This document shows positions 4,168 through 7,645 of a DNA stretch of 38,297 nt, piece by piece. The notes beneath the pieces are model-generated. The model did no database searches, was not told the origin of the DNA, and saw nothing but the letters and a program-made list of their open reading frames with translations. Source of the DNA: Enterobacteria phage HK620. Location of the stretch: sequence record NC_002730.1. One strand, given 5' to 3'. A program made the translations under genes and the position numbers. How positions within the stretch are numbered: position 1 is the first letter of the stretch; each line of letters opens with the position of its first letter.

Positions 4168-4457
4168 TTACTGATAGCGCCATAGCGTGAGTGGTAATTA
4201 CGCAGGCGCGGGTCGATATATTCAGGGAAGTGGGTATATGTGGCTTTGCGGAATGGTCGGATTGATGTCTGGTAAATTCGCTCGCGTTCTTCTTTCTCTG
4301 CAAGCCATATACAATGGCGAAATTCCTTTTCCTCTTTCGTTTCCTGCGGTAGCGACATTATCCGATCGTAGTTTTTTCTGAATTTATCCAGCACCTCCGA
4401 TACGGAATTGCCGGAACAGCGGAGTGGGTCATCCGCACCATACAGAGGCGCTGGCAT
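4161..4457 (-). CDS. hypothetical protein
   Basis: 98-aa ORF in the early-left operon. Confidence 0.5.
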
Positions 4458-4480
4458 AATGGGAGCCTTATTTTCAGTAA

Positions 4481-5068
4481 TCAGAAAGGAGGGTAATCGT
4501 TCTGGCTGTAACCATAATCATCTGCATGATTCTGGCTTACGTTTTTAGAGCGATTGTCTTTATCTTTGAGGCTGGCAACCATGTTGGCGATAGTTTCTGG
4601 TTGCTTGCCTACCGCCTTTTCTTTAAGGGTTTGACCTGTTTGTGCAATAAACGGGATGCGTATTTCCATCTGGTAGCTGTCTGCGCCAGTCTTTTTGTTT
4701 GTGGTTAATACTTTCTGGAGCACTAACCCGATTTTCTTTCCATGAAATTCAGGAGCAACAAATTTACTGGCGGAAACCATATGTTGCGTTAATTGTCCAA
4801 TCCCGGCACACCCCATCATGGCGTGGACGACATTTGCGCCAAATTTATTTTCCGTTCCGTCATTTTTCTGAACACAAACGCTAAGATATTGGATTTTACG
4901 TCCGTCGTCGGATTCGCCAGAAAACTCAATAAATTTGGCTCCTTTTTCTGATTGCTTTAGTTCTGCTTCAGTAATGGTAATGATATGAGCGCCAGTTTCG
5001 TTAATAAAACCACCTTGCCCTGCGGTCAGTGCTGCTTCTTCGTTATAAGTAAAAATCACGTTGCTCAT
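4481..5068 (-). CDS. DUF669-family protein, likely ssDNA-binding partner of Sak4
   Basis: 195-aa ORF immediately downstream of, and overlapping, the Sak4-like gene. Confidence 0.6.
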   Translation of the reverse strand: MSNVIFTYNEEAALTAGQGGFINETGAHIITITEAELKQSEKGAKFIEFSGESDDGRKIQYLSVCVQKNDGTENKFGANVVHAMMGCAGIGQLTQHMVSASKFVAPEFHGKKIGLVLQKVLTTNKKTGADSYQMEIRIPFIAQTGQTLKEKAVGKQPETIANMVASLKDKDNRSKNVSQNHADDYGYSQNDYPPF

Positions 5069-6185: not shown

Positions 6186-6334
6186 GGTGTGCTCCTTATT
6201 TATACATAACGGAAAACGCCTCTCGTGAAGCGTTATTGGTATGCATATAAAAAGGCCCTCACATTGGAGGGCAAAGAAGATTTCCAATAATCAGAACAAG
6301 TCGGCTCCTGTTTAGTTACGAGCGACATTGCTCC

Positions 6335-6362: not shown

Positions 6363-6482
6363 AGTGCAGTGTTTATTCGTATGCCTGTCTTTTAACCACA
6401 TCAGGCTCGGTGGTTCTCGTGTACCCCTACAGCGAGAAAAATAGTAAAATCCTCTTACCCCTACAGTAAGAGAGTAATTTAT

Positions 6483-6977
6483 ATGGATGTGTTATCTGGT
6501 ATAACTGCCGCGAAACAGGCTTATGATCTGCTGAAGACAATAAAAGAAACCAGAGACGATGCTGTTATCGCTAAAGCTATTGGTGATCTACACCAAAGAA
6601 TAACTGACTTACAGATGCTTAATGCGGAGCTCTCTGGCCTTTATCAGGCCGAGAAGGAGATCGCAATGAAGCTTCGAGATGAAAATAGAAAAATCAAGAT
6701 GTTTGTTGTGCAAGCTGAGAATTATGAACTTCATACAACTGAAGGTGGTTCTGTCGTGTATCGACCTAAGAGTCATTCCGATCATTCTATTCAGCAGCAT
6801 AACCTTTGTGCACATTGCTTCGGCGAACATAAAATATCGATACTTCAACCAAGCACGGTTACTATAAAATCTAATGGATTCTTTGTGCATTCATGTCCTC
6901 GCTGTAAGAATGAATACCGGATGTATAGAGCGCCAGACCCTAAGCCTGTATATGTACCGCCGCTGACAAATTATTAA
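6483..6977 (+). CDS. hypothetical protein: N-terminal coiled coil, C-terminal zinc ribbon (CAHC...CPRC); oriented against the leftward operon
   Basis: 164-aa ORF with ATG start; lower GC than neighbours; preceded by palindromes and direct repeats. Confidence 0.6.
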   Translation: MDVLSGITAAKQAYDLLKTIKETRDDAVIAKAIGDLHQRITDLQMLNAELSGLYQAEKEIAMKLRDENRKIKMFVVQAENYELHTTEGGSVVYRPKSHSDHSIQQHNLCAHCFGEHKISILQPSTVTIKSNGFFVHSCPRCKNEYRMYRAPDPKPVYVPPLTNY

Positions 6978-7007
6978 TTTTATTCCTGAAATGGCCTCTT
7001 CACCCCC

Positions 7008-7370
7008 TTACTTTGTCAGGGGGATATCTCCTTCAGTTTTGACCATTCGCCTTAATACTTTCCTTAAGTCGATGTAAAGTTGAAGGTCTCCATTTGCTGC
7101 GGCATCAGCCATTTTTTGCCTGACAAGCAGTAATGTTTCATACGGCTCAATAAGAATATCGTCATGAGTAATTAGGTGAAGCGTTGCCGCATCAACTATT
7201 CCTAGAGCTGCGCCAAGTATCAAAAATTCCCTGCTATTTTTGTCGCATGAGGAGATAAGCGTATTTAGCGCATACCTAATATTCTTTATAGCTGTTGTTA
7301 ATGCTGCAATTTCTTCTATGGCGTCTTCTCCAATGAGCTTTTTAAGCTCATATTTTTCTTCCTGACCCAT
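7008..7370 (-). CDS. hypothetical protein, translationally coupled to N
   Basis: ATG at 7370 with GAGG ribosome-binding site overlapping the N stop (gaggTAAttATG); 120 aa. Confidence 0.55.
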   Translation of the reverse strand: MGQEEKYELKKLIGEDAIEEIAALTTAIKNIRYALNTLISSCDKNSREFLILGAALGIVDAATLHLITHDDILIEPYETLLLVRQKMADAAANGDLQLYIDLRKVLRRMVKTEGDIPLTK

Positions 7371-7372
7371 AA

Positions 7373-7645
7373 TTACCTCGCCGTCAGTTGTTTTGATTTC
7401 CGGTAGCCTGCCGCGTAAATGGCTACGTTTGGCAGGCAAATACTTCCACTGCATTCTTCTGCCTTCTTGCAGCGAATGCTTCCGAGTGATGCTGCTTTAT
7501 CTGCTCTGACGCAACCAGAGAGCTTTAGCGCAATTTTTCGCGCCAGTCGCTGCTCTTGCATTGCCTGTTCACGTTGAGCCTGTCTGCGTGCTCTGCGGCG
7601 ATTTCTGGCGTTATCGTCAGCCAGATATGTAATGACTACTGTCAT
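7373..7645 (-). CDS. N: N-like transcription antiterminator with N-terminal arginine-rich motif
   Basis: 90-aa ORF with ARM (DNARNRRRARRQAQREQ); first gene after pL/nutL; GGAGG ribosome-binding site. Confidence 0.75.
   Translation of the reverse strand: MTVVITYLADDNARNRRRARRQAQREQAMQEQRLARKIALKLSGCVRADKAASLGSIRCKKAEECSGSICLPNVAIYAAGYRKSKQLTAR

Follow-up and report, generated by a model that had tools for sequence, protein, structure and literature searches.

Small accessory genes of the early pL operon are a familiar feature of lambdoid phages, and the best described of them offer a natural frame for the locus considered here. Ral, as encoded by lambda, P22 and CUS-3, is the product of one such gene, and in CUS-3 ral lies directly 3′ of the antiterminator gene N and has its own Shine-Dalgarno (SD) sequence. 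The same operon neighbourhood accommodates the P22 gp17-like proteins, annotated as 'superinfection exclusion protein', and SieB with Esc, the latter being an internal product of sieB. Where two genes of a phage or bacterial operon are translationally coupled, the stop codon of the one and the start codon of the next lie a few nucleotides apart, and the SD sequence of the second is found within the first. Genes taken from ral-containing accessory regions have given counter-defence or abortive-infection-trigger phenotypes in a screen (10.1101/2023.04.06.535777).

We describe here the small early accessory gene that follows N in Enterobacteria phage HK620 (NC_002730.1). The window, by which we mean the whole stretch of DNA analysed, is 38,297 nucleotides long, and the features of the locus are collected in Table 1. 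An earlier note on this DNA had proposed a gene of 120 residues at 7008-7370 and had called it unknown. The open reading frame is confirmed, on the minus strand, and shows purifying selection; it still lacks an assigned function, but it had already been annotated. The protein matches PHROG 7374 over the entire profile (residues 1-120 of 120, E=1.3e-79), and the 2.2 kb between positions 6300 and 8500 are 100% identical to phage HK630, in which the same gene is annotated as 'HkaQ protein, similar to phage HK620 protein' (AFH20794). The copy in HK629 is annotated as similar to NP_112050, HK620p17. Together with a third copy, in Stx1a_10051, these are 99-100% identical to the HK620 gene and preserve the order N-hkaQ-hkaP, and their records name no function. 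Judged by these matches, the 120-codon frame is the uncharacterised gene hkaQ, also listed as HK620p17 or PHROG 7374.

Table 1. Features of the N-hkaQ region of HK620, with one comparison gene from other phages (last line). Positions are those of the window unless a locus is named.
Feature	Position	Strand	Details
cI	9115-8399	-	
hkaS	8402-8016	-	~122-129 aa, hydrophobic, several likely membrane helices; PHROG 6534
pL-like promoter candidate	7868-7840	-	TTTACA-17-TATTCT; consensus scan only; would drive N and hkaQ
Putative nutL boxA	7793-7776	-	transferred from HK630 annotation (L001 6477-6494, offset +1299)
N antiterminator gene	7645..7373	-	90 aa; stop TAA 7375..7373; PF25694 N_peptide, E=1.1e-15
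N C-terminal module	7438..7373	-	CLPNVAIYAAGYRKSKQLTAR plus stop; 21 residues, shared by many N alleles
SD sequence of hkaQ	7379..7375	-	GAGGT; GAGG alone 7379..7376
hkaQ CDS	7370..7008	-	120 aa plus stop; ATG 7370..7368, TAA 7010..7008
Hairpin CCCCC-N11-GGGGG	7003..7023	-	across the hkaQ stop codon
Terminator-like site	7018-7032	+	AGGGGGATATCTCCT plus T-rich tail; overlaps the hairpin; would serve convergent hkaP (pattern scan)
hkaP	6483..6977	+	164 aa; PHROG 1244, function not assigned; convergent with hkaQ
Repeats flanking hkaP	7010-6995; 6463-6451	read on -	TAAGGGGGTGAAGAGG; TAGGGGTAAGAGG; imperfect direct repeat
First pL-strand terminator-like site, candidate tL1	6473-6451	-	last 13 nt are the second copy of the hkaP-flanking repeat
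Further terminator-like site	6272-6255	-	pattern scan
Lambda cIII thermoregulator RNA	6198-6140	-	RF01804, 88.5 bits, E=1.9e-21; at cIII start
PHROG 5305 gene	673-897 (L019-L021)	-	mEp213, ECP1, phi367

By its pattern of substitution, hkaQ is a genuine gene under purifying selection. Comparison with a 64%-identical homologue gives a dN/dS of 0.17 (dS about 1.5), and among 50 E. coli-type copies a single one is disrupted. The pN/pS within E. coli, 0.61, points to weak constraint outside the core of the protein, and amino-acid polymorphism among 50 copies spares residues 40-84 except for D71N. The start codon is likewise shared across the family. The aligned methionine is the start in the 64% homologue and in three short forms (39-41% identical overall; 44-54% over the aligned core), and at the Yersinia and Symbiopectobacterium loci the reading frame is closed by stop codons 10 and 2 codons before it, with no alternative start codon. 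Public databases (P0001, P0018-P0024) often give hkaQ a length of 148 or 158 residues, beginning at an ATG inside N; the 148-residue frame of some pipelines starts at the ATG at 7454, and the additional N-terminal residues of both longer forms are the 3′ end of N read in another frame. Because the homologues start at the aligned methionine and those of Yersinia and Symbiopectobacterium have in-frame stops upstream, we regard these longer forms as over-extensions. The name 'antitermination N domain protein' used by NCBI was also rejected, as PF25694 N_peptide matches neither the 120- nor the 148-residue form. Both the 148- and 158-residue starts and this name appear to be annotation artefacts.

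The connection between N and hkaQ is tight. Read on the minus strand, the junction is ...ACG GCG AGG TAA TT ATG GGT, which places the hkaQ ATG 2 nt past the N stop codon. The SD sequence GAGGT is composed of the G of the penultimate N codon, the last codon AGG and the T of the stop codon, and it is separated from the start by the 4-nt spacer AATT. The earlier note had both the start codon and the ribosome-binding site overlapping the N stop; the ribosome-binding site does overlap the end of N, but the ATG lies 2 nt beyond it. A junction of the form GCGAGG-T(AA/AG/GA)-NN(N)-ATG is kept in 63 of 63 family loci recovered by a pattern search for the junction followed by an HkaQ-like frame, and the same junction stands upstream of the aligned start in a homology-based survey of loci. 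Stop and start remain 2-3 nt apart even where protein identity has fallen to about 41-44%, and this holds from E. coli to Yersinia and Symbiopectobacterium. Thus, stop and start are a few nucleotides apart and the SD sequence is inside the upstream gene, as is characteristic of translationally coupled pairs, and by these distances hkaQ is near enough to N for termination-reinitiation coupling. Folding of the mRNA gave no significant structure occluding the hkaQ SD sequence (z = -1.05), which would enforce coupling, and we reject such a structure as the enforcer of strict N-hkaQ coupling on the same score. That HkaQ would be 'made whenever N is', in the words of the earlier note, is a reasonable inference from this arrangement.

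We also considered whether the last codon of N, AGG as opposed to AGA, might be a sign of selection for the SD sequence. The N alleles that run straight into a convergent sieB end in AGA TGA, but they all derive from one allele, and in Min27 AGG is present although no gene is tightly coupled to it. Given that AGA marks one lineage only, this comparison lends weak support to such selection, and we have set it aside.

The order of elements on the minus strand is cI, hkaS, the pL-like promoter, boxA, N, hkaQ, the convergent hkaP, terminator-like sites, cIII, kil, Sak4 and SSB. Promoters and terminators were called by simple consensus scans, and the position of the pL-like candidate fits the nutL boxA annotated in HK630. 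A simple pattern scan of the minus strand between pL and the hkaQ stop codon found no terminator-like site, which, combined with the 2-nt spacing, points to a single immediate-early message for N and hkaQ. Synthesis of HkaQ probably falls at the very beginning of infection. On the other side of pL, hkaS sits between cI and the promoter, which is the position of rexAB in lambda; it is probably expressed in the lysogen and is a candidate exclusion gene.

The AlphaFold2 model of HkaQ (seven-sequence alignment, mean pLDDT 77) has four helices, at residues 3-40, 47-68, 78-92 and 96-110. Conservation is concentrated in a core of residues ~20-80 that includes AIxNIR[YH]xL and IVDAATLHL.xH[DN]DxLxEP, and conservation is highest in IVDAATLHLxxH[DN]DxLxEP, a stretch that starts at the end of helix 2 and continues into a loop modelled with low confidence. 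Since the short forms do without helices 3 and 4, the core would consist of a helical hairpin and the HDDxLxEP loop. With a pI of 5.2 and a net charge of about -4, the protein is only mildly acidic and is thus no obvious DNA mimic. Helix 2 is hydrophobic (Kyte-Doolittle 19-residue mean 2.0) and holds an invariant Asp and an invariant His. As a transmembrane segment, however, it was rejected, because it scores worse for insertion than membrane proteins from the same loci: on the biological scale, the insertion sum of HkaQ is +2.8 and those of the short forms range from +4.9 to +8.3, against -0.2 and +1.2 for the membrane controls, which were HkaS and SieB.

Searches for a family of known function returned little. 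Pfam and NCBIfam scans of HkaQ gave no match, the PADLOC-DB defence models gave 0 families at E<=1, the best hit of a profile search against PDB sequences (E=0.002) was protein SG135, whose description is uninformative, and a fold comparison of the model found no specific structural neighbour. By these measures, HkaQ is a protein without a detectable enzymatic or DNA-binding domain. The earlier note had remarked that the protein resembles nothing recognised and had called for homology searches, and its remark stands, as those searches led to no family of known function. A literature search for hkaQ identifiers produced no match; in the biosensor paper PMC4506075, 'hkaQ' is an insertion-site landmark only. 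The HkaQ sequence was not found in the available portions of the supplementary files of 10.1101/2023.04.06.535777 or 10.1101/2024.06.14.598830.

The family itself is very small, consisting of an E. coli/E. albertii cluster, the 64% relative and short forms of 92-93 residues. Homologues were sought by a word-indexed search of 5.8 billion proteins and by exhaustive HMMER against 1.84 billion representatives, the latter giving 8 matches in all. Three long HMMER matches (P0007, P0010, P0011) were rejected as repeat proteins whose scores are summed over copies of a short chance motif. The E. coli/E. albertii cluster has 497 member sequences, and the exact HK620 sequence is present on at least 1,000 contigs. 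Short forms come from Yersinia pekkanenii, Symbiopectobacterium purcellii and metagenomes, and they match PHROG 7374 at E~1e-13 over residues 2-80 or 19-80. Among 5,426 complete E. coli genomes, hkaQ is found in 96, always on the chromosome, and it is common in prophages of O26 STEC. From this distribution we judge that hkaQ is an optional cassette.

The upstream side of the locus is far more regular than the downstream side. N itself belongs to PHROG 271, 'anti-termination protein N-like', and is also annotated in HK630. Its C-terminal module, CLPxVAxYAAGYRKSKQLTAR, precedes hkaQ in every family locus except that of Symbiopectobacterium, where the homologue sits behind an N-position frame without the module. 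At least eight types of N arginine-rich motif, including HK620-, phage 21-, 933W/H-19B- and P22-like ones, carry the module before hkaQ, and many N alleles have only the 3′ segment in common. N-related DNA occurs in 1,373 complete E. coli genomes, and the matches to N only end exactly at the N stop codon. Going by these alignments, the 3′ module of N acts as a mosaic homology patch among N alleles.

What follows this patch is not always hkaQ. The HK620-type N allele of HK140 has a convergent sieB next to it and no hkaQ. In mEp213, ECP1 and phi367 the same allele is followed after 3 nt by the gene of PHROG 5305, with the junction AGG TAA GTG ATG; this gene occupies the same slot as hkaQ, but it is unrelated in sequence and shorter (74 residues). 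CUS-3 has a different N C-terminus, and there 8 nt separate the N stop codon from the start of ral. N does not need hkaQ, and the position just 3′ of N serves generally as a socket into which alternative cassettes are tightly coupled.

Several loci show N itself in altered form. In Min27, a lambda/21-type C-terminal coding sequence, TCVGRQKMKLGSKP, lies out of frame after the stop codon of the shared module. Together with the sharing of the module by at least eight N types, this points to N C-termini as exchangeable units, one type having been inserted in front of the other. A short-form locus represented by three independent assemblies (L015-L017, about 1456-1915) has an N frame that is out of frame with its own module, and the module and the SD junction before the hkaQ-like gene are intact despite the frame-shifted N. 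For E. coli O26 strain E2865 (L009), PGAP gives only a 90-nt 'incomplete regulator' upstream of hkaQ. Positions 4366-4572 of this locus, on the minus strand, hold a GTG-initiated frame of 68 residues with an Arg/Lys-rich N-terminus and the standard N C-terminal module, which may be a short variant of N; the same N 3′ segment recurs in three IMG/VR loci.

On the 3′ side of hkaQ, at least 10 different arrangements are found across the family loci. Convergent followers are hkaP, a GhoS-family gene or, for the short forms, sieB, and co-oriented followers include DUF2528, genes of 149, 156 and 52 residues, ral and others. The combination of at least 10 downstream architectures with at least eight N types is the pattern expected of a self-contained accessory gene. 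In HK620, hkaP is an insertion of ~540 bp between imperfect direct repeats of ~12 nt (6451-7010), and in ET245, 19AR1724 and TW10590 the hkaQ stop codon is joined directly to the sequence that follows hkaP in HK620. Within complete E. coli genomes, hkaP DNA is found only beside hkaQ, with 66 genomes that have both and about 30 that have hkaQ alone, although many of the 66 are 99.8% identical to the query and several are O26, so they may not be independent. The HkaP family (PHROG 1244) is broad and occurs without hkaQ in HK446, in Klebsiella phages and in the Pseudomonas Mu-like phages DMS3, JBD30 and D3112 (orf25). Given that hkaP is a separate insertion, is missing from several hkaQ loci and has a family that occurs without hkaQ, we reject it as an obligate partner.

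Other details of these neighbours deserve mention. The C-terminus of HkaP has a weak, sub-threshold match to a zinc ribbon, and in HK446 the HkaP-family gene is convergent to N, in the position of sieB. The short-form homologues abut or overlap the 3′ end of a convergent sieB wherever downstream sequence is available. At five loci (L003-L006 and L074), the 64% homologue faces a convergent GhoS-family gene that overlaps its 3′ end, as at L005 1713-1997 on the minus strand; the match to PF11080 GhoS is 29.3 bits (cut-off 21). GhoS is a family of type V antitoxin endoribonucleases.

The reading that we favour, to which we would give somewhat less than an even chance, is that HkaQ is an early, non-enzymatic, protein-binding factor for counter-defence or host takeover, directed against a protein of the host or of a resident prophage. 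We favour it because hkaQ is optional, highly mobile among immunity regions, self-contained with respect to its neighbours, probably expressed as early as any lambdoid gene and located where counter-defence genes are known, witness ral and the screen of accessory genes from ral regions, and we infer it from position, timing and the absence of domains. In this reading hkaQ is a bona fide early gene in the pL operon, present in some phages only, and moves as a mosaic cassette joined to the conserved 3′ end of N. It would be transcribed with N as an immediate-early message, before N antitermination is needed, and its product would be translated either by ribosomes that finish N or by direct initiation at GAGGU. 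Within minutes of the onset of infection or induction, HkaQ would then act stoichiometrically by binding and neutralising a protein of the host or of a resident prophage, and its target would differ from that of Ral. Against this reading weigh the only mildly acidic charge of the protein, the absence of its sequence from the supplementary files named above for the accessory-gene screen, the weak constraint outside the core and the reliance of the promoter and terminator calls on simple scans, and the invariant linkage could point to a functional tie with N instead.

The difference from Ral matters because the earlier note had placed hkaQ in the position of ral or exclusion-bypass genes. The slot indeed holds ral in CUS-3, but equivalence with ral is weakened by the lack of similarity and by the co-occurrence of the two. 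Comparison of HkaQ with Ral by hhalign gives a probability of 0.5%, and tblastn with two types of Ral as queries gave no match in the window; the corresponding hhalign values are 0.4% for the P22 gp17-like protein and 0.1% for SieB, with no match of HkaQ to Pfam PF14163. Mutual exclusivity of Ral and hkaQ held in the first 26 loci and was overturned by ET245 and IMG/VR loci. A Ral that is at least 97% identical to that of CUS-3 follows hkaQ in L030, L051, L052 and L054; among the loci with both genes are ET245, in the order N-hkaQ-ral, and three from IMG/VR. A further locus, L027, has an 82-residue gene annotated as anti-restriction in the hkaQ operon. In all, hkaQ and a Ral-type gene are together in five loci of differing architecture, with hkaQ the N-proximal of the two in each. 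Lack of similarity and coexistence with ral thus argue that hkaQ is not a simple ral replacement. A functional analogue of Ral that acts on type I restriction-modification enzymes could still have been proposed from the shared slot and from the first 26 loci, but with five loci that carry both genes, the negligible hhalign score, a protein twice the size of Ral and sequences that look unrelated by eye, we consider this very improbable. The place of hkaQ as an early gene in the same pL operon as cIII and kil raises the thought of a modulator of the lysis-lysogeny decision or of host physiology, of the cIII or Kil type, or of a protein associated with the membrane through its hydrophobic helix 2 (mean 2.0) with the invariant Asp and His. 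Such roles strike us as highly improbable, as the insertion sums of HkaQ (+2.8) and the short forms (+4.9 to +8.3) are worse than those of the membrane controls (-0.2 and +1.2), most lambdoid phages do without hkaQ, and the protein does not resemble the PHROGs of cIII or Kil.

Two further explanations take their cue from the neighbours of hkaQ. N, with its 21-residue module, is the only invariant neighbour, across at least eight RNA-binding types and from E. coli to Yersinia, and the 2-3 nt spacing is preserved at about 41-44% identity, as might be expected if HkaQ were an accessory factor of N. Made in a fixed ratio with N, it would bind the C-terminal module, RNA polymerase, a Nus factor or Lon, and stabilise N or tune antitermination. 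We think this unlikely. The same N allele or module is without hkaQ in most of its carriers (HK140, mEp213, ECP1, Min27, Lambda_4B5), the 1,373 E. coli genomes with N-related DNA far outnumber the 96 with hkaQ, the Symbiopectobacterium N-position frame has no module, and HkaQ has no N_peptide domain; moreover, recombination within the conserved 3′ end of N also explains the linkage. The downstream side suggests instead an Esc-like antidote or regulator of a convergent, lysogen-expressed gene, be it SieB, HkaP or the GhoS-like gene, by which the phage would protect its own lytic growth. Convergence of the short forms with sieB, which they abut or overlap, the frequent convergence of the long forms with hkaP or a GhoS-family gene and the restriction of hkaP DNA in complete E. 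coli to genomes with hkaQ (66 with both, about 30 with hkaQ alone) are what one would look for in this case. However, the convergent partner comes from varied, unrelated families, and at least six architectures have none, a co-oriented DUF2528, 149-, 156- or 52-residue gene or ral following instead. SieB- and HkaP-family genes are often beside N without hkaQ (HK140, Lambda_4B5, PhiR11_1, HK446), the HkaP family reaches the Pseudomonas Mu-like phages, hkaP is a separate repeat-flanked insertion, HkaQ resembles neither SieB nor Esc, and the 66 genomes may not be independent. An Esc-like role is accordingly one that we hold to be improbable.

Should HkaQ indeed serve counter-defence or takeover, the catalogue of anti-defence proteins would gain a new fold and a new target. 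The gene would also help to explain differences in host range among Shiga-toxin and other lambdoid prophages, given how common it is in those of O26 STEC. A bolder version of this thought, which we regard as rather doubtful, is that HkaQ founds a new family of immediate-early, N-coupled proteins. These would either counter a defence system not known to be inhibited, or serve as a detachable subunit that, with the C-terminal module of N, modifies the antitermination complex, the invariant HDDxLxEP loop being the binding determinant in each case. Independently of function, the last codons of these N genes offer a ready-made ribosome-binding 'socket' for cassettes, with hkaQ and PHROG 5305 as occupants and ral nearby. 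Cassettes in this socket would obtain the earliest possible expression, which provides a simple rule for finding early accessory genes of lambdoid phages.

Set against the described systems, hkaQ is an uncharacterised member of a familiar class, the early lambdoid accessory cassettes. HkaQ has 120 residues to the 66 of Ral, and the two are without sequence or profile similarity. The gp17-like gene, which lies downstream of hkaQ in UTAK-1 and ET245, and sieB/esc share its operon neighbourhood but show no similarity to it, and whereas Esc is made from within sieB, HkaQ is the product of a separate gene on the opposite strand. With translationally coupled pairs hkaQ has in common the 2-nt gap and an SD sequence in the last codon of the upstream gene, although no occluding RNA is predicted in its case. 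As it stands, hkaQ is one more well-delimited gene without an assigned function, and what distinguishes it is how consistently, over many N types and in several genera, it is welded to the stop codon of N.
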